Of a stretch of DNA of 35,064 nucleotides, positions 4,093-27,541 are shown piece by piece. The notes under the pieces were generated by a model. The model worked only from the letters and a program-made list of their open reading frames with translations, made no database searches and had not been told where the DNA came from. This stretch comes from an archaeon (GTDB lineage: Archaea > Thermoplasmatota > E2 > UBA202 > JdFR-43), in assembly GCA_024275755.1 (NCBI GenBank), contig JAJRYN010000158.1:1-35064 (forward strand), read 5' to 3'. Made by a program: the position numbers and the translations under genes. Positions within the stretch are counted from its first letter, which is position 1; each line of letters opens with the position of its first letter.

Positions 4093-4934
4093 GGTGCTGT
4101 TAACTTAACGAAATTTTTCGATAAAAATATGCACCCCACCCCATTGATTACATTTTGAGGTGAACAAAATGCGAGGGGATGGGGTGCAATTATTAAAATA
4201 CTTACTGAAAGAAAAATCTATCGTTATTAGAGAAAGAACACCAATTGAGATAATGTTATACAGCGTTTTCCTTTATCTTTGCAAACTTTCTCTAAGAGAT
4301 GTTGTAATGGCCATTCGTATTTTCGTTAAAAGAAGTAGAACTGCCATATGGAAATGGATACAGAAATTTGGCAATGTAGTTAAAGAACATATTGCAGATG
4401 AAATGCCCAATATTGTCGTCATTGATGAAACAATACTTCAGATAGGAGATACAAAATTCTGGTTCTGGTTTGTTCTGGATCCAGAGAACAAAAAGATAGT
4501 TCTTTTCATGATAAGCAGAAGTAGAACAGATTTTGCCTGTAAAAAACTTGTTTATAAAATGTGGGAAATGTATGGAAAATTACCATCTATAGCATTGACA
4601 GATGGTGGAGCATGGTATTCGATGCTAAGAAGATATGGAATCCAGCATGAAATTATTTCTGGAGGAATTAGAAACTATATTGAAAGAGTTATTGAAACAA
4701 TAAAAGATAGAACTAGAATCTTTGACCATTATTTCCCAAGTAAAAGATGGAAAATGATGCATGTTGAATTGTGGTTATCTCTTTACATTTTCTATTACAA
4801 CTGGATACGGAGTCATTTGAGTTTATCAAATAATTCTCCTGTTTTCCATAGCAGGAAAATAAAAATAGAAAATGAATACGAAAGATTTATAGTAGCATTG
4901 CAGGAGGTGCTGCAATGCTAAAGTTAACAGCACC
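4093..4934 (+). mobile_element. IS6-family insertion sequence (842 bp)
   Basis: Perfect 14-bp terminal inverted repeats GGTGCTGTTAACTT (4093-4106) and AAGTTAACAGCACC (4921-4934) around a single DDE transposase. No 8-bp target duplication seen. Confidence 0.88.
4169..4921 (+). CDS. IS6-family DDE transposase
   Basis: HTH (LSLRDV..RSRTAIWKWIQK) and DDE motifs VIDET, LTDGG, NYIER. ATG 4169 follows SD GAGGTGA; GTG 4160 is an alternative start. Confidence 0.88.
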   Translation: MRGDGVQLLKYLLKEKSIVIRERTPIEIMLYSVFLYLCKLSLRDVVMAIRIFVKRSRTAIWKWIQKFGNVVKEHIADEMPNIVVIDETILQIGDTKFWFWFVLDPENKKIVLFMISRSRTDFACKKLVYKMWEMYGKLPSIALTDGGAWYSMLRRYGIQHEIISGGIRNYIERVIETIKDRTRIFDHYFPSKRWKMMHVELWLSLYIFYYNWIRSHLSLSNNSPVFHSRKIKIENEYERFIVALQEVLQC

Positions 4935-5030
4935 CTGCGATGGACATAAATACTTTTTTGTTGGTTTATCACTACTCATTACATAATTTATATAATATCT
5001 ATACAACATAAATTCAGTATAGCCATATAC

Positions 5031-5876
5031 TCAACTAATATATTTTTTCTTGTTGTTTTCGATGATGAAGAGCTTTCCTTTTCTTTTCGCTTTTGCTGCT
5101 TTTCTTCGCTGCACCTCATTGAATTCTTCTATGCTTATTATTGCCTCATGCTCCCCTTTAAAAATGAAATCTTCCCATTCCATCAAACCACAGTAAACTG
5201 GATTGGAGAGAATGCGAGATATTGTTTTTCTATCCCACCTGCCACCTTTCTTCGTTCTTATTCCTCGCCTGTTAAGCTCATCAGCTATGTCTTTCATGCT
5301 CATGCCATCAACATACATCTCAAATATCTCTCTCGCAACTCTCAACTCCTTTTCCACACCCCGCAACATCCCTCCATCATATTCATAGCCATATGGCGCT
5401 GGCGAGCCAAGCAAACCCTTGCCTTGCTTTGCTTTTTGGCGCATGCCGTCATAGACGCGCTCACCAATCTGCTCGCTTTCCAACTGGGCTATACGCTGTA
5501 TAATGTCCATGACAAATCTTCCCATCGCCGTGGATGTATCCAAACTTTCTGTCATTGAAACGAATTCTTTATTTTTGTTTCGCAACTCTTCCATCATGAG
5601 CATGAAATTTTTTGAATTTCTGTGTATACGATCCATTTTCATCACAAGCAGCACATCCCATTTATCAATGTCCTCCATCATTTTTTGGTAAGCAGGACGG
5701 CGAATATCACGCCCGCTGTAGCCATCATCAACATACTCGCCAGCTATCTCCCAGCCTCTCGCCTTGCAGTAGCTACGCAGCTTCTCTAGCTGACTATCCA
5801 GGCTAAAGCCCTCTTTCGCCTGGTCTTCAGTGCTGACACGAGCATAAATCGCAACTTTTTTTACTCCATTCTCCAT
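5031..5876 (-). CDS. Serine recombinase (resolvase catalytic domain plus recombinase DNA-binding domain)
   Basis: YARVSTEDQ catalytic Ser motif, DDGYSG, DRIHRN, PYGY, ILSNPVYCG, HEAIIS. No zinc ribbon. Confidence 0.92.
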   Translation of the reverse strand: MENGVKKVAIYARVSTEDQAKEGFSLDSQLEKLRSYCKARGWEIAGEYVDDGYSGRDIRRPAYQKMMEDIDKWDVLLVMKMDRIHRNSKNFMLMMEELRNKNKEFVSMTESLDTSTAMGRFVMDIIQRIAQLESEQIGERVYDGMRQKAKQGKGLLGSPAPYGYEYDGGMLRGVEKELRVAREIFEMYVDGMSMKDIADELNRRGIRTKKGGRWDRKTISRILSNPVYCGLMEWEDFIFKGEHEAIISIEEFNEVQRRKAAKAKRKGKLFIIENNKKKYIS

Positions 5877-12115: not shown

Positions 12116-13530
12116 ATGCTAGAAGATTTAGAGCCTAAGATAGTGTGGAAATATTTTGAGGAGATTTGTAAAATTCCGAGATGTTCAAAGCATGAAGAAA
12201 AGATTGCAGAATACATAATGGAAGTGGCTAAACAGCATGGACTCGAAGTGGAAAAAGATGATGTGGGAAATGTTATTGCAAGAAAAAAGGCAAATGGCTA
12301 CGATAATGCGCCAATGGTGACATTGCAGTGTCACATGGATATGGTATGCGAGAAAAACAAGGATGTGGAGCATGATTTCAGTAAAGATCCTATTCAGCCA
12401 TATGTGGATGGAGAGTGGGTTAAGGCAAAGGGAACAACACTGGGAGCAGATAATGGCATTGGCCTAGCAATGTGCCTTGCTCTGATGGAAATAAAGGATG
12501 CGAAGCATGGACCTTTAGAATTTCTATTCACAGTTGATGAAGAAACCGGGCTAACAGGAGCTTTTGGACTGAAAAAGGAATTTATAAAAGGCAAGCTACT
12601 CATTAATCTGGATAGTGAAGATTTGGCGTAATATATATAGGATGTGCAGGAGGGGGAAATTCAACAATAAAGCTGCCATTAAAATTCAAAGAAGTCGATA
12701 AAGAAGGGTTAAGAATAACTGTAAAAGGGTTAAAAGGCGGACATTCAGGCATAGAAATCGACAAAGGAAGAGCAAATTCAATAAAGTTGCTTGCCCGCAT
12801 ATTGTACAACATAAATGCAAGGGTAAGTAAAATCGAAGGTGGAGACAAACACAACGCGATACCAAGAGAAGCAATGGCAGAAGTTGTGGCTGGAGAAGAT
12901 GCAATAGAAAAGATAAAGGAGCTGGAATCTGCATTCAGAAATGAATATTCAAGAACGGAGCCAAATTTGAAGGTGGAAGTAGAAAAATGCAGGATAACAA
13001 AAGTGCTTGATGAAGAAACAAATGAGAAATTAATAAAACTGCTTATGTCACTGCCACATGGTGTGTTAGCAATGAGTCAGGAAGTGGAAGGGCTTGTAGA
13101 AACATCAACAAATCTTGCAACAATAAGAATGGATGGAGAAGCAACAGTTGTCATGAGTTCAAGAAGTTCGATAAACTCTGCCTTAGATGCAGTGATGCAG
13201 AGCATAAGATGTATGGCAGAGCTTGCAAAAGCGAGTGTTGAAGAGGGAAGCAAGTATCCTGGGTGGAAACCAAATCTTGATTCCAGATTACTAAAAATAG
13301 CATCGGATGCATTTAAGGAGTTATATGGAAAAGAACCAGAGAAAAAGGCAATCCATGCTGGATTAGAAACAGGAGTAATAGGAGATCTCACAGGAATAAA
13401 CGAGATTATTTCCATAGGTCCACAAATAGAACATCCTCATAGCCCTGATGAAAGAGTGCATATAAAAAGTGTTGAAGAATTCTGGAAATATTTGCTGCAT
13501 CTGCTTGAGAAGGTAGCAAGAGAATGGTGA
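12116..13530 (+). pseudogene. pepD: Aminoacyl-histidine dipeptidase (M20C) split by a 1-nt frameshift near 12622-12624 (pseudogene or sequence error)
   Basis: 5' frame has QCHMDMV, LGADNG, VDEETG, NLDSE. The conserved continuation FGVIYIGCAGG..GGHSG..HAGLE..HSPDERV lies in the -1 frame. Confidence 0.85.
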
Positions 13531-15422
13531 AGGGAGTAGCCATAGCTACTATTCTTTTTCTCCTCTCCCTTAATTTTAATTTTTTTGATGGCGATTATGT
13601 AAAAGAAACTTATATGGTAGAGATGAGAGATGGTATAAAACTTGCTACAGATGTGTATCTTCCTGGAGATGGCTCAGGCTCATATCCTGTTGTTCTGATA
13701 AGAACCCCATATAATAAAAATGGTACTTCTGAAGAACTTGTAAAAGCTTTTGTGAGCAGAGGATACGCTCTGGTTGTTCAGGATTTACGTGGCACCCATG
13801 CTTCAGAAGGTATATTCAGAGCTTTTCTTGATGATGGCTGGAATGAATGTCAGGATGGAAATGATACTGTGCAATGGATTTTGAGTCAGGAATGGTGCAA
13901 TGGCAAGATAGCGGTATGGGGCGGCTCTGCAATGGGAATAGCTGGCTATATGCTTGCTGGCAGCTGTAATGTTACTTGCATGCTAATTGCCATAGCTGCA
14001 TCTAATATGTATAAGCATGCTGTCTACCCTGGAGGAGAATTCAGAATAGATGCTGAGGAATGGCTTAAAGAGCAGGAAGCAGAATACATGGTGAGGATAT
14101 TTGAGGAGCATTATAACTATGATGACTTCTGGAGACAGCTTGATTTATCAACAAGATATAATCATGTTGGCACACCAATTTACCACATTGGAGGATGGTA
14201 TGACATTTTTGCAGAAGGAACAATGGATACATTTTTAGGGTTGCAAGATAAGGGAAATCAAAAGTTGCTGATGGGGCCGTGGACTCATGGCGAATTCCTT
14301 ACAACCCAGCAGGGTGATTTGATTTATCCAATTAACTCACTGCTTGATGTATATGGCGAGACAACTGGATGGCTTGATTACTGGATGAAAGGAGAGGAGA
14401 CGGGAATAATGAAGGAGAAAATAAGATTCTATATGATGGGAGAGTGCTCAACAAAACAGGGATATAAAGCTAAAAGTGGCGCAGGAAATGAATGGTGGGT
14501 ATGCAATGAATGGCCTCCTTTTATTGTCGAGCCAACAAAGCTATATCTGCATGAAAATGGTTTGCTGAACTATGATATGCCGTATGCCGAAGAACCAGAT
14601 TCATTTTTATATGATCCTTCCAACCCTGTTCCAACCATTGGTGGAAGAAATCTTGTTCTGCCATCTGGGCCAATGAAACAGAATGAAATTGAGGAGAGAG
14701 AGGATGTTCTAGTATATACCTCTCTCCCCTTAGAAAAGCCTGTTACAATAGCAGGAAAAGTTATAGCTCATTTATGGATAAGCTCATCTGCAAAAGATAC
14801 TGATTTTTCTGTTCGCCTGTGCGATGTTTATCCTGATGGAAATTCGTATATAATAGCGCATGGCATCTTAATGGCAAGGCATCGCATTTCCTTTGAAAGA
14901 GAGGACTTTCTGGAAGGAGGAATATATGAATTGAATATATCTATTGGAAATACAGCGATTATATTCGATAAAGGACACAGAATAAGAATTGATATTACAT
15001 CCAGCAATTATCCAGCATTTGAGAGAAATCCAAATACAGGAGATGCTTTCAGAAAAAATGATAGTTATGTTGTTGCCGAAAACACCATTTACCATGATGC
15101 TGAACATCCATCCTACATTTTACTTCCTGTATTAAATGAATTCAAAATTGAGCCAGAAGATGGTATATTCATTGCTGGAAAGAAAGTTATGAATGCAAAA
15201 ACGCTTGTTATAATAGGGAAAATAAATTTTGAGGTAAGGGCAAATTGCAGCAAAGCCATCTTTTATCTGGATGGCGAGAAAAAATATGAGGACTATGATG
15301 AGCCATTCATCTGGCAGTTTGATGAGTTTGCCATAGGATTTCATAAAATCAAGGTGGAGATTTACAGCAAGGATGGAAAAATGGTTGGCAGAGAAAAAGA
15401 AATCATAATTTTCAATATATGA
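13524..15422 (+). CDS. Secreted CocE/NonD-family (S15) hydrolase with C-terminal Ig-like domain
   Basis: MRDGIKLATDVYLP, RTPY, QDLRG..SEG, WGGSAMG nucleophile, GGWYD, GPWTH, SSNYPAF. Confidence 0.92.
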   Translation: MVKGVAIATILFLLSLNFNFFDGDYVKETYMVEMRDGIKLATDVYLPGDGSGSYPVVLIRTPYNKNGTSEELVKAFVSRGYALVVQDLRGTHASEGIFRAFLDDGWNECQDGNDTVQWILSQEWCNGKIAVWGGSAMGIAGYMLAGSCNVTCMLIAIAASNMYKHAVYPGGEFRIDAEEWLKEQEAEYMVRIFEEHYNYDDFWRQLDLSTRYNHVGTPIYHIGGWYDIFAEGTMDTFLGLQDKGNQKLLMGPWTHGEFLTTQQGDLIYPINSLLDVYGETTGWLDYWMKGEETGIMKEKIRFYMMGECSTKQGYKAKSGAGNEWWVCNEWPPFIVEPTKLYLHENGLLNYDMPYAEEPDSFLYDPSNPVPTIGGRNLVLPSGPMKQNEIEEREDVLVYTSLPLEKPVTIAGKVIAHLWISSSAKDTDFSVRLCDVYPDGNSYIIAHGILMARHRISFEREDFLEGGIYELNISIGNTAIIFDKGHRIRIDITSSNYPAFERNPNTGDAFRKNDSYVVAENTIYHDAEHPSYILLPVLNEFKIEPEDGIFIAGKKVMNAKTLVIIGKINFEVRANCSKAIFYLDGEKKYEDYDEPFIWQFDEFAIGFHKIKVEIYSKDGKMVGREKEIIIFNI

Positions 15423-23003: not shown

Positions 23004-23798
23004 CTATTCTTTTTTCATGATTATATTTCCCTCTGTCTTTATTTTTTCTTGTTTTTCTAATTTTTGGGCTAATTTTTTGATCCAGTTTTCATCTTGCTGC
23101 ATTTCTTTTGCGAGTTCCTCTATGGTATAACTCCTGCGATTTATCTTTTCTAAAATTAAAGAAATGGCAGCATCTTCTTCCGCCATTTTTTCTATTTCTT
23201 TTATATTTGGCACAACGATTCCATAATCCTCCTGCAACCTCATTAACCTTTGAAAAAGATATGCAATCCAGGCAATGTTGGAATTTTCACTCTGCCATTT
23301 TATTTCCTCTTTTATCACTTCAAAATCTAATCCCTGCAAGTAAAGAATGTGCATATCTTCCAAATCTCTTTCTCTTTCTGTTATACCTTTGAATAAGAAT
23401 ATATCTTCCTTTGATAGAAGAAAAAGTTTTAGATTTTTAAAATCAAACTGCATTTCTCTGCATCTACTCATCATATGAGGAGATAAAATTAAGCCATGAC
23501 AGACAACTTTTATGAATACATCCCATCTAAAACCATCTTTATTTTCCATTACCAATCTTGATCCCATTTTCTGGTATAGTGGCAAATATTTTTCTTTATA
23601 TCCACACTTCAACAATACATCTTTAAGAATTGCCAGCTCTTTTTCTTCGTTCAAAATAATATCTATGTCTCTTGTTGCATCTTTTAGGCCGAGTAAACTC
23701 ATATTTCCTCCACCAATCAAGTATAGTTTGATTTGCTTATCTATGGCGTTATCGATTTTCTTCAACTCTTTATGGATATATTCTTTTCCAAAACTCAT
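23004..23798 (-). CDS. DUF6036/AbiEii-like nucleotidyltransferase with C-terminal HTH
   Basis: YLIGGGNM..KDATRDIDII, WDVF, DIFLFK...RERDLED. ATGA overlap with the upstream gene. Confidence 0.78.
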   Translation of the reverse strand: MSFGKEYIHKELKKIDNAIDKQIKLYLIGGGNMSLLGLKDATRDIDIILNEEKELAILKDVLLKCGYKEKYLPLYQKMGSRLVMENKDGFRWDVFIKVVCHGLILSPHMMSRCREMQFDFKNLKLFLLSKEDIFLFKGITERERDLEDMHILYLQGLDFEVIKEEIKWQSENSNIAWIAYLFQRLMRLQEDYGIVVPNIKEIEKMAEEDAAISLILEKINRRSYTIEELAKEMQQDENWIKKLAQKLEKQEKIKTEGNIIMKKE

Positions 23799-24688
23799 TT
23801 TATCACCGCATATTCTTTCAAAAGTTCATTATATTCTTCTCTGTTAGGGAAGTCATCAAAATCTTGTTTTTCATCAACATATTTTATTATTTTCGCGGCC
23901 TTCTCTTCCATTTTATATATTTTGGCTATTCTCATCAAGTCTTTTGGCTTTGTTTTTTGATATAAAAGACAGGCATAAGCAATATTTGTTTTGCTATCTG
24001 GTTCGATCAAAACAGTATGGATAATTATATCAGAAATTGTTATATCTCTTCTGGAATAGAAATAATAGTTATACGATGGCATGAAGAGTAAGCCAAAATT
24101 TTTGAAAGCAGATATAGCTGTTAAATGATAATTTTTTTCCTTTATTTCCTTATGAGTTTTTATTAAAAATTCCGGACCCTGTTCCCATATCAAAATTGCC
24201 CCCTCGTCCACTTTTGCCATCTCCATCCTATTCAAAAAACTCTGAAACTCAAAAACGAATGCCCTTAGTATCCTGTGATGCGGATTTATTTTATAGCCAT
24301 TCTTTTTGATCAGGATTCCATATCTCAAAAAATCTTTTATGGCATTGTAAACTGTCTGGCAACTAACTCCAATTATCTTAGCTATAACGGATGATTCATT
24401 TTCTATTACAGAAAGCATTGCTATCCTTCTTTGAGTTAACAATTTCTCGACAGGTAAAGTCGGATATTCCTTGAGAAAATTAAAGAATAGAGAAGCATGC
24501 TTTGTATTTCCCATTTTCAAAAAAATTCTTTTGTTATGTCTTTCTCTGATTATAAAGCCCAGTCTTTCCAAATTCTTCATGGCAACAGATACTTTTCCCT
24601 TGCTTATCTTTACCTTTTCCACAATATCTTTTAAGGCGTCGCCTTCGTTGAAGTTACGAAGAATTTTTAATTCAGTTTTCCCAAGCAT
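23795..24688 (-). CDS. Tandem winged-HTH transcriptional regulator (putative antitoxin)
   Basis: wHTH motifs ISKGKVSVAMKNLERLGFI and IIGVSCQTVYNAIKDFLRYGIL. Translationally coupled to the nucleotidyltransferase. Confidence 0.7.
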   Translation of the reverse strand: MLGKTELKILRNFNEGDALKDIVEKVKISKGKVSVAMKNLERLGFIIRERHNKRIFLKMGNTKHASLFFNFLKEYPTLPVEKLLTQRRIAMLSVIENESSVIAKIIGVSCQTVYNAIKDFLRYGILIKKNGYKINPHHRILRAFVFEFQSFLNRMEMAKVDEGAILIWEQGPEFLIKTHKEIKEKNYHLTAISAFKNFGLLFMPSYNYYFYSRRDITISDIIIHTVLIEPDSKTNIAYACLLYQKTKPKDLMRIAKIYKMEEKAAKIIKYVDEKQDFDDFPNREEYNELLKEYAVIK

Positions 24689-24756: not shown

Positions 24757-25824
24757 TCACTTATACCTCAGCAATGCTGCAACATGCCCGAGGTTTTTTA
24801 TTTCATCGCCGGAGATAAATTCCACTTTTGCATCTGTTCGTTCGGCAAATTCTATGATTTCTTCAATGACGTCTGCCTCTGAAGTTTTTCCATGGCAGTA
24901 TGGGCATTCCTTTGCTGTTCCTTTTCCCACTGCCTGACAATTCTCGCAGATCCATCCTCTGAGTTTGTAGCCTTTTTCTACCAGCAACAATTCTATCTGC
25001 CCATTTCTTGCTGCTTCAATGATATCATCTACACCACAAACTCCTAAGCCATCTCTCAAAATTTCTTTTTTCAAATGCTGCATCGTATCTTTTTTCTCTT
25101 CCATTTCTTTTTCAGCCATCACTGCCATGGATTCTTCAAATAAATCATGTTCATCTTCTATGTCAACATCTATGGTATCGACAAGCTTTTCCTGCAAACT
25201 TTTTGGCAGCATTGACTTAAATTCATATTTAGCCTGGCCGGGTCCAGCTATTATGATGTTTGCATTGGCATACTTCTGCAGCTCCTCCATCACTTCCACA
25301 AAAAACGCGTGTATGCTTCCTTTTCTCAGCCTCTGAAACCTTGCCTGAGACCATCCCCCTTTCTTGTGTTTATTCATAATGTATGCTGACAGCCTTTTCT
25401 TCTCTGTTATCTTGCCACATGAAATAGAGAAAATTTTTGCGTGATTTGTATTGAGCAAAACAAGAGTGAATGACTCCCATGTATCTGTCAGTTCAACCAA
25501 AGGGCGAATGTAGGGTGAGGAATCAACAACAAGAAGATTTTTTATTTTCACAGGGATATCAACAACTTTGAAATATGCATGCTTGTGAGAAGCAAATATG
25601 GCAACATTACCAGCATGCTTCTTTCCCAAAAATTCTTTTATTTCTTCCATCGTCTTCACAAAATTATCCAGCTCCTCTCCTTTTAAAACAGCCATAACTG
25701 CTTTCTCTCTTCTATAAATAAATTTCCTATCCTTTCCATCAAAATAAAGGCTAACAAATGTATCCATGCTCTCCTCATCATATATGGAGGAAAGCTCCTT
25801 TATCGCTTCATCACATAATTCCAT
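24757..25824 (-). CDS. aRF1/eRF1-fold release-factor paralog (baeRF1/VLRF1-like)
   Basis: FVSLY, SSPYIRPL, KHKKGGWSQARFQR, IIIAGPG.AK..F, CENC..CPYC zinc ribbon, AALLRY. Lacks NIKS and GGQ. Confidence 0.82.
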   Translation of the reverse strand: MELCDEAIKELSSIYDEESMDTFVSLYFDGKDRKFIYRREKAVMAVLKGEELDNFVKTMEEIKEFLGKKHAGNVAIFASHKHAYFKVVDIPVKIKNLLVVDSSPYIRPLVELTDTWESFTLVLLNTNHAKIFSISCGKITEKKRLSAYIMNKHKKGGWSQARFQRLRKGSIHAFFVEVMEELQKYANANIIIAGPGQAKYEFKSMLPKSLQEKLVDTIDVDIEDEHDLFEESMAVMAEKEMEEKKDTMQHLKKEILRDGLGVCGVDDIIEAARNGQIELLLVEKGYKLRGWICENCQAVGKGTAKECPYCHGKTSEADVIEEIIEFAERTDAKVEFISGDEIKNLGHVAALLRYK

Positions 25825-25860
25825 GTTTCAGTAATGGATGCCCCTTCTTAACTTTATTGA

Positions 25861-26085
25861 ATGAAAATGGAATGTGGTTGCTGCTGTAGCATTTTGTATG
25901 AATGCAAGCTCAGTGAATGATATGAAAAGAATGTGTTGTGTGCATTTCATAATGAAGGAAAAATGTTGTGCTGTAACCATCTTCATTTGGAGTTTGCTGC
26001 TGCAACAGTCATTTTTCATTCATGATATTGAAAGAGTATGATGCAGTTGGCAGATTCAGATGAAAAATAATGCTGCTGCCACCGA
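25861..26085 (-). repeat. Array of 4-5 degenerate hairpin repeats (left array, minus orientation)
   Basis: Units at about 25861, 25922, 25952, 25987 and a half unit at 26060: ATGAA(A/G)..[TG-rich]..TTCAT on plus, i.e. CA-rich loops on minus. Confidence 0.6.
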
Positions 26086-26155
26086 AAACTTTATAAATGG
26101 TTTTAACCCCTCCCCTGGTTTATATAGTCTCATTGCTTTATTATACAAGCAGGAA

Positions 26156-26202
26156 AGGCCTGCATGTATATAAAGCGCCCTGGGGTGGGCACATGCAGGC
26201 TT
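26156..26202. other. GC-rich stem-loop flanked by C-tracts
   Basis: GCCTGCATGT/ACATGCAGGC perfect 10-bp stem with inner GCCC/GGGC. C-tracts at 26107-26115 and 26219-26235. Confidence 0.6.
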
Positions 26203-26275
26203 GGTTTGCCTTTCATTTCCCCTCCCCCTCCCTCCTTTTTTTATGAAAGTTTTTTAATGCCTTTTTTCTTTCTCA

Positions 26276-26509
26276 ATGATGATTTCTCTGGCAGCATTGC
26301 AGGAAGGCAAAAAGGCAAGAATAACAAAAATTGTAGGTGGCTTCGGATTCATAAGGAATTTGAGGGCGAGAGGAATAAGAGAGGGAAAGGTTGTTGAGAT
26401 TGTGGCAAAGCATCCTTTGGGAGGACCCATAGTCATAACCATTGATGGAAGAGAAACGACAATAGGCAGAGGAATGGCAGAAAAAATAATTGTGGAAGAG
26501 ATTGAATAA
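26276..26509 (+). CDS. feoA: FeoA domain protein (no adjacent feoB)
   Basis: LAALQEGKKARITKI..LRARGIREG..HPLGGPIVI..IGRGMAEKIIVE. Confidence 0.9.
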   Translation: MMISLAALQEGKKARITKIVGGFGFIRNLRARGIREGKVVEIVAKHPLGGPIVITIDGRETTIGRGMAEKIIVEEIE

Positions 26510-26515
26510 AGGCTT

Positions 26516-26849
26516 ATGAAAAGAAATGCTACTGCAATTTTTTCATACTCATGAAAGAGAATTTGTTGCAACATCCATTTTTTTCATTGGTTTTTTCTTT
26601 TCATTAACTCATAAAAGAGAAAAGGCACAACAACATTCTTTTCATTTGTCTTTCTTTTTGCTCATGAAGAGAATTTGCCATGACACCATCCTTTTCATTG
26701 GTTCTTTCATTAACTCATGAAAGAAAAAGAAAGAAGATATGTCACAATAGCATCCCATGAGCTCATGAAAGGATTCTACCACAACATCCATCTCTTTCAT
26801 TATTTCTTTATTCATGAGATGGAATAAGCCAACAAAACACCCATTTCAT
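26516..26849 (+). repeat. Array of 7 degenerate hairpin repeats, about 50-bp period (right array)
   Basis: Units start at 26516, 26551, 26611, 26664, 26717, 26765, 26814. Consensus ctcATGAAAGAGAAT-[..CACAACA]-TCC(A)TTTTCATt. Confidence 0.72.
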
Positions 26850-26917
26850 TTTTTATTTATACCTTATTTGTTCACATTAGCAACTTATTTAAACACTGGC
26901 TATTATATGATTGCAAA

Positions 26918-27541
26918 ATGAAAGTTCCTCGGTGGAAGAAAGCTGAGTTTGAAGAAATAGAATATGAGCCAAAGAGCATAAGAGAATTATTAAAAGAAAT
27001 GAAGAATATCAGCGAGTTGATAGTAGACTTAGCCTATTCTGCCATTCTTTTCAACAATAAAGAGATAGCTGAAGAAGTGAAATATCTGGAAGTAAGAATG
27101 GATAAGCTCAACTACGAAATAAGAATAATGGCTATGCTGGCAGCGAGAAATGCTGAAGATGCAGAGAAAATGGCGGGAGTGCTTCAAATTGCTCAGGCAG
27201 CAGATACAATATCAAATGCCGCCGCCGACATGGTAAAACTGCTTGCATACAAGCTTGATCACCCCATACTGCCTCATTTAATAAAAGAATCAGATGAAAT
27301 TATAAGGAAAATAAGCGTTGATGAAAATTCTGCTGCGTGCGGAAAAACAATAAGCGAGCTGAAAATTTCCTCTGAGACAGGAGTGAGAATACTTGCAATA
27401 AGAAGAAAGGACAGATGGATTTATGGACCAAAGGGAAATGTAAGGCTGAGAAAGGGGGATATTTTAATATGCATTGGGCCAGAAGAAGGTATAAAGCATC
27501 TTAATAGGCTTCTGAAAGGAGAAATAGAGGTGCTTGAATGA
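26918..27541 (+). CDS. PhoU plus TrkA-C (RCK_C) domain protein (COG3273-like)
   Basis: EMKNISELIVDLAYSAIL helical domain; GKTISELKI..GVRILAIRR..GDILI. Confidence 0.85.
   Translation: MKVPRWKKAEFEEIEYEPKSIRELLKEMKNISELIVDLAYSAILFNNKEIAEEVKYLEVRMDKLNYEIRIMAMLAARNAEDAEKMAGVLQIAQAADTISNAAADMVKLLAYKLDHPILPHLIKESDEIIRKISVDENSAACGKTISELKISSETGVRILAIRRKDRWIYGPKGNVRLRKGDILICIGPEEGIKHLNRLLKGEIEVLE

Follow-up and report, generated by a model that had tools for sequence, protein, structure and literature searches.

The repeat arrays and the genes around them

The DNA analysed here (the window) is one whole contig of 35,064 nucleotides (JAJRYN010000158.1, about 35 kb, designated C140), belonging to an archaeal metagenome-assembled genome (MAG; assembly GCA_024275755.1, designated G000) of 1,422,108 bp in 161 contigs. 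The subject of the analysis is a spacer of 1.09 kb separating two outward-facing genes, which houses two arrays of short repeats and, between them, a central non-coding element and the gene feoA. The locus was compared with close relatives (G001 and G002), with other genomes of the same genus (G003 and G004) and with further genomes, among which G005, G012, G017 and G021 belong to a sister genus, g2; families are coded f1, f2, f3, f4, f6 and f8. All the genomes are fragmented MAGs, and the unit counts and copy numbers given below are provisional.

The spacer is bordered on the left by an accessory eRF1/Pelota-like gene (24757..25824, minus strand; Pfam baeRF_family10, 1.2e-19, and eRF1_2/eRF1_3), and on the right by a gene with PhoU and TrkA_C domains, as defined by Pfam (26918..27541, plus strand); each of them points away from the array next to it. 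The core promoter region of the latter gene (26853..26917, plus strand) was delimited by comparing upstream sequences with those of G003 and G004, which keep it and are without arrays. feoA (26276..26509, plus strand, 77 amino acids; Pfam FeoA domain, E 1.5e-19) is the sole open reading frame (ORF) of the spacer matching a protein family. No feoB is adjacent to it, and feoB-like frames lie on other contigs of G000 (C79, C138/C141), which bears out the orphan status assigned to feoA by an earlier reading of the DNA letters alone (the sequence-only reading). Its product is 93-95% identical in G001 and G002, and 75-82% identical in five other genomes, where the gene lies in other contexts.

According to the sequence-only reading, feoA is flanked by mirror-oriented arrays of hairpin repeats, with CA-rich loops on the outward-reading strand. 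The four units quoted there as examples are all present at their places, and the spacings of the seven right-hand units (35, 60, 53, 53, 48 and 49 bp) are exact, with starts (ATG or ATA) at 26516, 26551, 26611, 26664, 26717, 26765 and 26814. A unit is 35-55 bp long, and is made of a CTCATGAAAG-type word, a CA-rich core (type GC-A-CAACA-TYC) and TTTCATT. Common to both arrays is a directional core of about 24 nt, in which a CA-rich part is followed by TYC, a run of T and TTTCAT, reading outward.

Units were scored by using R1, a covariance model built from 17 units of G000, G001 and G002. Five units of the right array, all on the plus strand, score 42-57 bits: unit 2 (26543..26590, 51.6 bits), unit 3 (26603..26648, 45.6 bits), where ATA replaces ATG, unit 4 (26656..26701, 44.9 bits), unit 6 (26757..26803, 56.6 bits) and unit 7 (26806..26852, 41.6 bits). 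Units 2, 3 and 6 are part of the training set; unit 7 is the best conserved in G000-G002, with a 1-nt indel (alignment A1). The head-to-tail series of seven stands as described, except that unit 1 (26513..26547, plus strand; nhmmer E 0.058) has a TG-type loop, of opposite polarity, and unit 5 (26714..26764, plus strand, read from the sequence) is degenerate: it is without the TTTCAT arm, carries the palindrome CATGAGCTCATG at its end and gives no R1 match on the plus strand. Tandem Repeats Finder (TRF) reports a 53-bp period over 26541-26724, with 3.3 copies and 70% matches.

The left array had been described as having the same design on the opposite strand. Its CA core does read outward, but the array is irregular, shows no TRF period and includes one unit of opposite polarity. 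The best left unit, ATGAAGATGG...CCTTCAT (25949..25997, minus strand; R1 34.5 bits, E 3.5e-6; in the training set), is the only one where a CA-rich outward loop is clear, as it is in the five strong right units on the plus strand; the first right unit and the segment 25990-26020 have the opposite polarity. The short unit ATGAAATG...TTTTCAT (25919..25953, minus strand), quoted in the sequence-only reading, reaches a position weight matrix (PWM) score of 21.8. Two further left matches to the unit model, on the minus strand, are very weak (E 0.35 and 0.7). The latter (25864-25907) corresponds to the outermost unit (25858..25907, minus strand), which, as read from the sequence, has the core and the TTTCAT arm and no clear 5' arm; homologous units lie upstream of the ortholog of the eRF1-like gene in G009. 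The innermost left unit (26057..26103, minus strand; nhmmer 26059-26099, E 0.13; PWM 17.0) is partial and overlaps the start of the central element. Between these, the segment 25988..26058, for which no strand is assigned, forms an imperfect long palindrome in the minimum free energy (MFE) structure, with a CA-type arm on the plus strand (nhmmer hit 25990-26020) followed by a TG-type arm, and resembles one whole palindromic element.

The words ATGAAR/YTTCAT are enriched at the locus far beyond chance: 15 of them fall within 500 bp at 26500, which is the genome maximum for counts stepped by 100 bp (mean 2.16, standard deviation 1.54). Other loci dense in these hexamers (C5:10400, C53:900, C112:14100) turned out not to be array-like. 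Elsewhere in the genome, a PWM scan for the 24-nt core mostly picks reverse-complemented gene starts, and hidden Markov models (HMMs) and covariance models were used instead.

The folding aptitude of the arrays was compared with that of dinucleotide shuffles. The right array folds better than its shuffles on both strands (z -4.34 and -3.96), an advantage that the left array lacks (z -0.62 and -0.68). The MFE of the right array is largely due to long-range pairing between repeats, rather than to unit hairpins. The claim that stems vary in sequence and stay complementary holds only marginally, 88.6% of the cells being paired against 86.4% in column shuffles; for the 9-bp stem in the 17 aligned units, 44 of 500 shuffles equalled the pairing and 22 the covariation score. 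The pairing is due to the conserved ATGAAA/TTTCAT words plus purine/pyrimidine runs and, since shuffles nearly match both pairing and covariation, the "hairpin" of a unit is mainly a conserved inverted word pair accompanied by such runs. Small ORFs of 12-18 codons, with ATGAAA starts and overlapping ATGA ends, can be read on either strand, and were rejected as coding: from ATG to TTTCAT the units measure 29-31 nt, so that the conserved words occur in all three frames, and the orthologous last units differ by a 1-nt indel. When the whole window was compared with Rfam at gathering score, only a tRNA was found; at E<=10, the region 25800-26950 produced 21 matches, all far below gathering (best 29.9 vs 70 bits).

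These results bear on one of the functions proposed by the sequence-only reading, i.e. that the arrays, transcribed as outward leaders of the flanking genes, give multi-hairpin RNAs acting as protein sponges. The folding of the right array on either strand and the CA-rich loops on the outward-reading strand are what such RNAs would show; against them stand the marginal covariation, the inter-repeat nature of most pairing in the right array, a left array no better than shuffles, and the lack of any Rfam match above noise at E<=10. In addition, elsewhere the family is a DNA element flanked by target-site duplications (TSDs), with no consistent gene orientation in G005, as described below. The proposal is left unsupported, and we regard it as very unlikely.

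Occurrence of the repeats in related genomes

When 40 relatives were searched, only G001 and G002 proved to hold the block formed by the arrays, the central element and feoA, with an identity of 78% over all 1091 nt for G002 and of 86% over the middle part for G001. The right-array units are seven in G000, six in G002 and five in G001, where the left array is nearly all lost, along with most of the eRF1-like gene. In G003 and G004, feoA is found in another context, with no arrays, and the orthologous PhoU gene is preceded by a 95-bp array-free spacer, whose core promoter is conserved with the window. Because both sites are array-free in these two genomes while the core promoter is kept, the arrays were added recently, upstream of a promoter already in place. 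The eRF1-like gene is variable as well: within five genomes searched, an ortholog (88% amino acid identity) was found only at G009:C195, while G003, G004, G005 and G017 hold only a paralog of about 32-34%, and mere pseudogene fragments of the gene are seen at G003:C37. An ortholog in another genus, together with fragments and paralogs in these four genomes, suggests that the gene moves horizontally and that the region is variable.

A long spacer of 1.09 kb, holding mirror repeats between divergent genes, could also suggest a replication origin or a segregation locus with inverted protein-loading repeats, as proposed earlier. The absence of arrays in same-genus G003 and G004, at feoA as well as at the PhoU site, argues against it, as does the dispersal of the unit in 85-98 or more copies in G005. 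Moreover, the only Orc1/Cdc6 gene of G000 (Cdc6_C match) is located on another contig, C16, where its 135-bp upstream spacer is without such repeats, and the GC skew on C140 simply follows gene strand. The proposal finds no support in these data, and is extremely unlikely.

Elsewhere in G000 only a few weak units are found, solitary or paired (C73, C70, C85, C54). The orthologous site of the solitary unit on C73 is empty in G003 and G004, and is occupied by 53 nt in G000 and about 150 nt in G001; it is the only site at which presence/absence polymorphism was found. Two comparisons of empty sites within genus g2 gave none: the contigs of G021 end at repeats, and synteny is lost in G012 and G017.

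The same 40 relatives were searched with R1 at E<=1: 85 matches were found in G005, 13 in G021, 9 in G012 and 4 in G017, all of genus g2, distributed over many contigs. In G005, the matches correspond to the loop and 3' arm of a longer palindromic element, of about 105-110 bp. An HMM of this long form, used with nhmmer on 317,108 bp of G005, identified 66 merged elements, about one per 5 kb. Near-full-length copies end in terminal inverted repeats (TIRs) of type GGGTnTGTTGAA and its complement. The borders of 12 such copies were compared: 7 share an exact word of 9-11 nt, 2 share 6-7 nt and 3 share none, whereas only 2 of 132 control pairs, obtained by mismatching left and right borders, reach 9 nt. 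The TSDs of the element are about 9 bp long and AT-rich. Since it is palindromic, has TIRs and is flanked by duplications of about 9 bp, the G005 element is a MITE, or miniature inverted-repeat transposable element. The units of the window belong to the same family by sequence model.

A sequence-only model of the long form, R3, was run on 39 genomes. At least 98 matches were found in G005 (a lower bound, 99 candidates having been scored), 47 in G021 and 12 in G010; nine other genomes of family f1, including G000, have 1-3 each, and none was found in the 14 genomes of families f2 and f3. Copy numbers spread in this way define a burst pattern. In G021 and G012, contigs frequently terminate within the element.

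An element of about 810 bp at G005:C31, with ends GGGTTCATCGAA / TTCGACGAACCC, carries two transposase-like frames (split). A homolog of its protein, 57% identical, lies beside an array remnant at G009:C195, where homologous ends are also present. In G000, fragments of the protein occur at two contig ends, and identical ends of this insertion sequence (IS) are found at, or within about 130 bp of, contig ends, two being left and five right ends (C21, C157, C75, C88, C107, C114, C159); the IS is multi-copy in G000, and breaks the assembly there. No Pfam family was found for the first frame of the G005:C31 IS, nor for the G009 frame. Judging from its matching ends and its weakly IS4/IS5-like transposase, this IS of about 0.8 kb is the likely driver of the MITE. 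The Y1/RAYT transposase (PF01797) was found in none of five genomes (G000, G001, G005, G012 and G021, 84-95% complete), the control being positive in 6 of 14 known genomes. Another suggestion of the sequence-only reading, a hairpin family similar to repetitive extragenic palindromic (REP) sequences, was right in pointing to a dispersed palindromic family, but the family is a MITE with TIRs and TSDs, probably tied to a DDE-type IS, lacks a RAYT partner in those genomes and lies upstream of genes.

The position of the elements was evaluated on a crude longest-ORF map of these 317 kb of G005 (280 ORFs, 88% coding). At least one element is found in 19 of 45 divergent spacers (42%), in 24 of 105 tandem spacers (23%) and in 1 of 21 convergent spacers (5%), with Fisher p-values, for spacers not fully independent of each other, of 0.017 for convergent spacers vs the rest and 0.019 for divergent vs tandem. 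The MITE family thus favours gene-upstream spacers, and the locus in the window is a divergent spacer, the type most often occupied in G005. Orientation to the neighbouring genes is inconsistent in that genome, 20 of 29 elements in tandem spacers being antisense (count by hand). The figures agree with roughly one occupied gene start out of every four in G005; if real, a single element would have touched much of the promoter landscape of that genome. A supply of start codons by the element was considered and set aside: by eye, the adjacent frames at three loci (L030, L044, L046) begin outside the element or are doubtful.

A palindromic element is also found at G005:C57 (L151), upstream of position 855, about 100 nt upstream of the orthologous PhoU/TrkA_C gene and directly after a frame resembling, by eye, an IS110-type transposase. 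The upstream region of this gene has been hit independently in G005.

A preference for gene-upstream spacers (42% divergent, 23% tandem, 5% convergent) is also what would be expected from a domesticated regulatory array, in which a host protein, or a transposase-derived regulator, binds the CA-rich core with its ATGAAA/TTTCAT dyad, covers the spacer and adjusts the expression of both outward genes, possibly also that of feoA and of the small RNA described below. The arrays are directly upstream of both outward genes, with the core in the same sense as each of them, the CA-rich core is kept across genera, and a period of about 53 bp would correspond to about five helical turns. However, G003 and G004 keep the PhoU core promoter without any array, in G001 the left array has almost entirely gone, together with the greater part of the eRF1-like gene, and unit number and sequence change fast among the three close genomes. 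The orientation in G005 is inconsistent, with the antisense majority reported above, and no candidate regulator was identified. On balance, a regulatory array is an unlikely explanation.

A small-RNA-like gene between the arrays

The most conserved non-coding part of the interval is the central element (26080..26250, plus strand; 21-copy alignment A3; 150 bits with model R2), a conserved small-RNA-like gene unmentioned in the sequence-only reading. In order, a BRE/TATA-like box (BRE, B recognition element) comes first and a C-rich tract next; then follow another TATA-like box, accompanied by an AT-rich stretch, a hairpin, another C-rich tract and a T-run; in the 21 aligned copies, a conserved AAG is found about 20-23 nt downstream of the second TATA-like box. 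RNAalifold predicts 11 pairs, 7 of them with compensatory changes, around a nearly invariant loop. G000 has a second copy of its own (G000:C134:1396-1543, minus strand; R2 126 bits).

Within the class, 39 of 151 genomes match R2, with 1-5 copies each. By family, matches were found in 21 of 24 genomes of f1 (G000 not counted), 13 of 13 of f2, the only one of f3 and 3 of 4 of f8; none was found in the 68 genomes of f4, nor in the 32 of f6. A 23-nt pattern corresponding to the loop identified 52 stretches in the species collection, with about 36 Thermoplasmata-type MAGs among them (count of titles); the remaining matches, in scattered bacteria, are by a rough estimate about as many as expected by chance. 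The central element has no Rfam match, either at gathering score or at E<=10. Found in four families (f1, f2, f3 and f8) and absent from Rfam, it is a candidate for a new small-RNA family, and a candidate regulator. A full-text literature search turned up no publication dealing with repeats or small RNAs in these archaea.

A cis-acting leader was considered and rejected, as five genes lying downstream in the same direction bear no relation to one another (PKD, UbiA, coiled coil, Toprim, acetyl-CoA hydrolase). In about 8 of 20 loci the next gene is convergent (hand reading), and the C134 copy faces a convergent tRNA-like sequence, read by eye as a tRNA-Cys with an intron. Because its neighbours vary and the next gene is often convergent, the central element looks like a free-standing small-RNA gene, rather than a leader of feoA. 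Its C-rich tracts resemble an anti-Shine-Dalgarno sequence, and for this reason one may guess at a translational control, exerted by pairing of the tracts with G-rich ribosome-binding sites. Three copies elsewhere (L016, L018, L022) have an extra G-rich insert, of GGAAGGAGGG type, just before the C-rich tail, which could pair with the tail and mask it.

Two tRNA-like sequences of G000 were noticed by eye. In the one facing the C134 copy (about 1290-1400), a tRNA-Cys(GCA)-like sequence, a non-canonical intron is inserted in the T-loop; the other, on C70 (about 15101-15200), is a tRNA-like gene with a GAU anticodon and a long insert (non-canonical intron).

Other features were observed along the contig. 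Directly adjoining the eRF1-like gene, a DUF6036 nucleotidyltransferase lies beside a winged-helix/HVO_2833_C protein (23004-24688, minus strand), possibly a toxin-antitoxin-like or mobile pair. At 4160-5876, an IS6-family transposase frame (104 bits, with a cut-off of 125) adjoins a serine recombinase (Resolvase and Recombinase domains), and this is another mobile-element patch on C140. An M20-type peptidase (12116-13530, plus strand) is split in two frames, 12116-12631 and 12787-13530, possibly by a frameshift, as a pseudogene, or by an assembly error. A search of public sequencing runs with positions 25700-27000 of the window found no RNA run, and DNA runs sharing at most 0.14.

Origin of the arrays and comparison with known systems

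We estimate at roughly 60% the probability that the arrays are tandemised halves of the MITE, i.e. selfish-DNA debris in a promoter-bearing spacer. The window units align to positions of about 44-95 of the G005 element, which correspond to its loop, its CA-rich arm and the start of its terminal part. The decayed G000 copy on C54, composed of a TG-type arm, a loop like the 5' half of the window units and a CA-type arm, bridges the units and the long element. The whole interval is a lineage-specific block, confined to G000, G001 and G002, of three unrelated parts: the arrays, the small-RNA-like gene and feoA.

In the process that we propose, MITE copies would have landed in a divergent, promoter-bearing spacer, the type of place preferred by the family, and would then have lost their ends, while slippage or unequal recombination would have copied their halves in head-to-tail series. 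The insert with the small-RNA-like gene and feoA would have been acquired later, between the halves, and these would stand in mirror orientation around it because the element is palindromic. The arrays may well be devoid of host function; if they act at all, they would do so as DNA, in the form of modules prone to hairpins and possibly bound by transposase.

Several observations weigh against this origin. The HMM of the G005 element matches the window weakly, the best match in the whole of G000 being right unit 4 (positions 51-95, E 0.00096), so that descent from the MITE rests on a similarity of about 45 nt in AT-rich DNA. No TIR-like words occur in 25800-26900, and no target duplication is seen at the outer borders of the arrays, where the flanking 9-mers differ (read from the sequence); no unit of the window is therefore demonstrably an insertion. 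At least four genera (G000, G005, G008, G009) have kept the CA-rich core, as would also be expected if a conserved host protein recognised it, and the direction may be the reverse, the MITE having picked up a host motif. G008 has a tandem array of its own on C67, with at least seven units: tandem arrays thus recur, perhaps under selection. In fragmented MAGs, arrays of repeats are open to assembly errors, and the gene map used for G005 is crude. As to the IS, its family matches (IS5, 15.7 bits; IS4, 12.8 bits) are both far below curated cut-offs, and the similarity of its subterminal sequence to the MITE arm was judged by eye only.

The borders of the arrays also bear on a different relation to the same IS/MITE family, i.e. 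that the block is a non-autonomous transposon, whose mirror arrays are multi-site ends, and which in the past carried the small-RNA gene, together with feoA, as a cargo cassette. Subterminal repeats occur at the ends of some DNA transposons. On the plus strand, the left array is of TG type and the right one of CA type, a polarity shared with the two arms of a single MITE; the outer 21 nt of the outermost left unit are 71% complementary to 26830-26850, at the outer end of the right array; and the pairing of small RNA and feoA, like the whole block, is found only in G000-G002. The borders, however, have neither TIR words nor a visible target duplication, the left units of G009 travel with the eRF1-like gene and not with feoA, and no genome searched holds a second copy of the block. 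We consider a cargo transposon quite improbable; if true, it would be an archaeal DNA transposon with subterminal arrays of transposase-binding repeats as ends, replacing simple TIRs.

Decay and tandem multiplication of MITE halves would explain the locus as mobile-element debris, more plainly than a new regulatory or replication device, and guards against over-reading such arrays. Many contig ends also fall at these repeats, which interrupt MAG assemblies and so bear on binning and on studies of synteny.

Prokaryotic MITEs derived from DDE-type insertion sequences have been treated in a review (PMC10969869) and in a survey (PMC11602168); the main text of the survey has no mention of Thermoplasma. 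The form found in G005 and G021 is like the IS4/IS5-type MITEs in being short, non-coding and palindromic, with TIRs matching a longer, putative IS and duplications of about 9 bp, and in reaching tens to hundreds of intergenic copies, in lineage-specific bursts. The window arrays differ from MITEs, since they consist of half-elements, approximately, repeated head to tail, without TIRs or detectable duplications; the strong gene-upstream bias of the family is not a defining MITE trait. A full-text literature search found no description of this MITE family, although the supplementary MITE lists of PMC11602168, outside that search, could hold it. Apparently, the MITE family and its IS partner, found in uncultured Thermoplasmata of vents and sediments, are undescribed so far.

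REP sequences, with the related BIME and REPIN elements, are mobilised by RAYT (Y1 HUH) transposases (PMC3733652, PMC3184786). The family described here shares with them short palindromic units, alternating clusters, extragenic location and a lineage-specific sequence. It differs in having no Y1_Tnp match in the five genomes, in being AT-rich rather than GC-rich and in the presence of target duplications. REP and BIME sequences are located at gene 3' ends or between convergent genes, and make no target duplication. The present family, in contrast, is found upstream of genes; in G005 its elements occupy 19 of 45 divergent spacers, but a single one of the 21 convergent spacers.

Correia and ERIC-type bacterial MITEs are TIR elements of about 100-150 bp, often placed upstream of genes, whose expression they can alter. 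They are bacterial, with other ends and other duplications. Archaeal replication origins with inverted origin recognition boxes (ORBs) resemble the window in having mirror repeats in a long spacer between divergent genes. The window differs from them, as it has no adjacent orc1/cdc6, its arrays are not conserved within the genus, and its unit is genome-wide in a sister genus; the units themselves are, we presume, unlike ORB boxes. Sponge RNAs such as CsrB and RsmZ, like the arrays, are tandem hairpins with a recurring loop motif, but in the arrays covariation is weak, one of the two folds at background level, and the unit is elsewhere part of a DNA transposon. The family is best filed with the IS-derived MITEs rather than with the REPs, and the arrays of the window as their TIR-less tandem derivatives.

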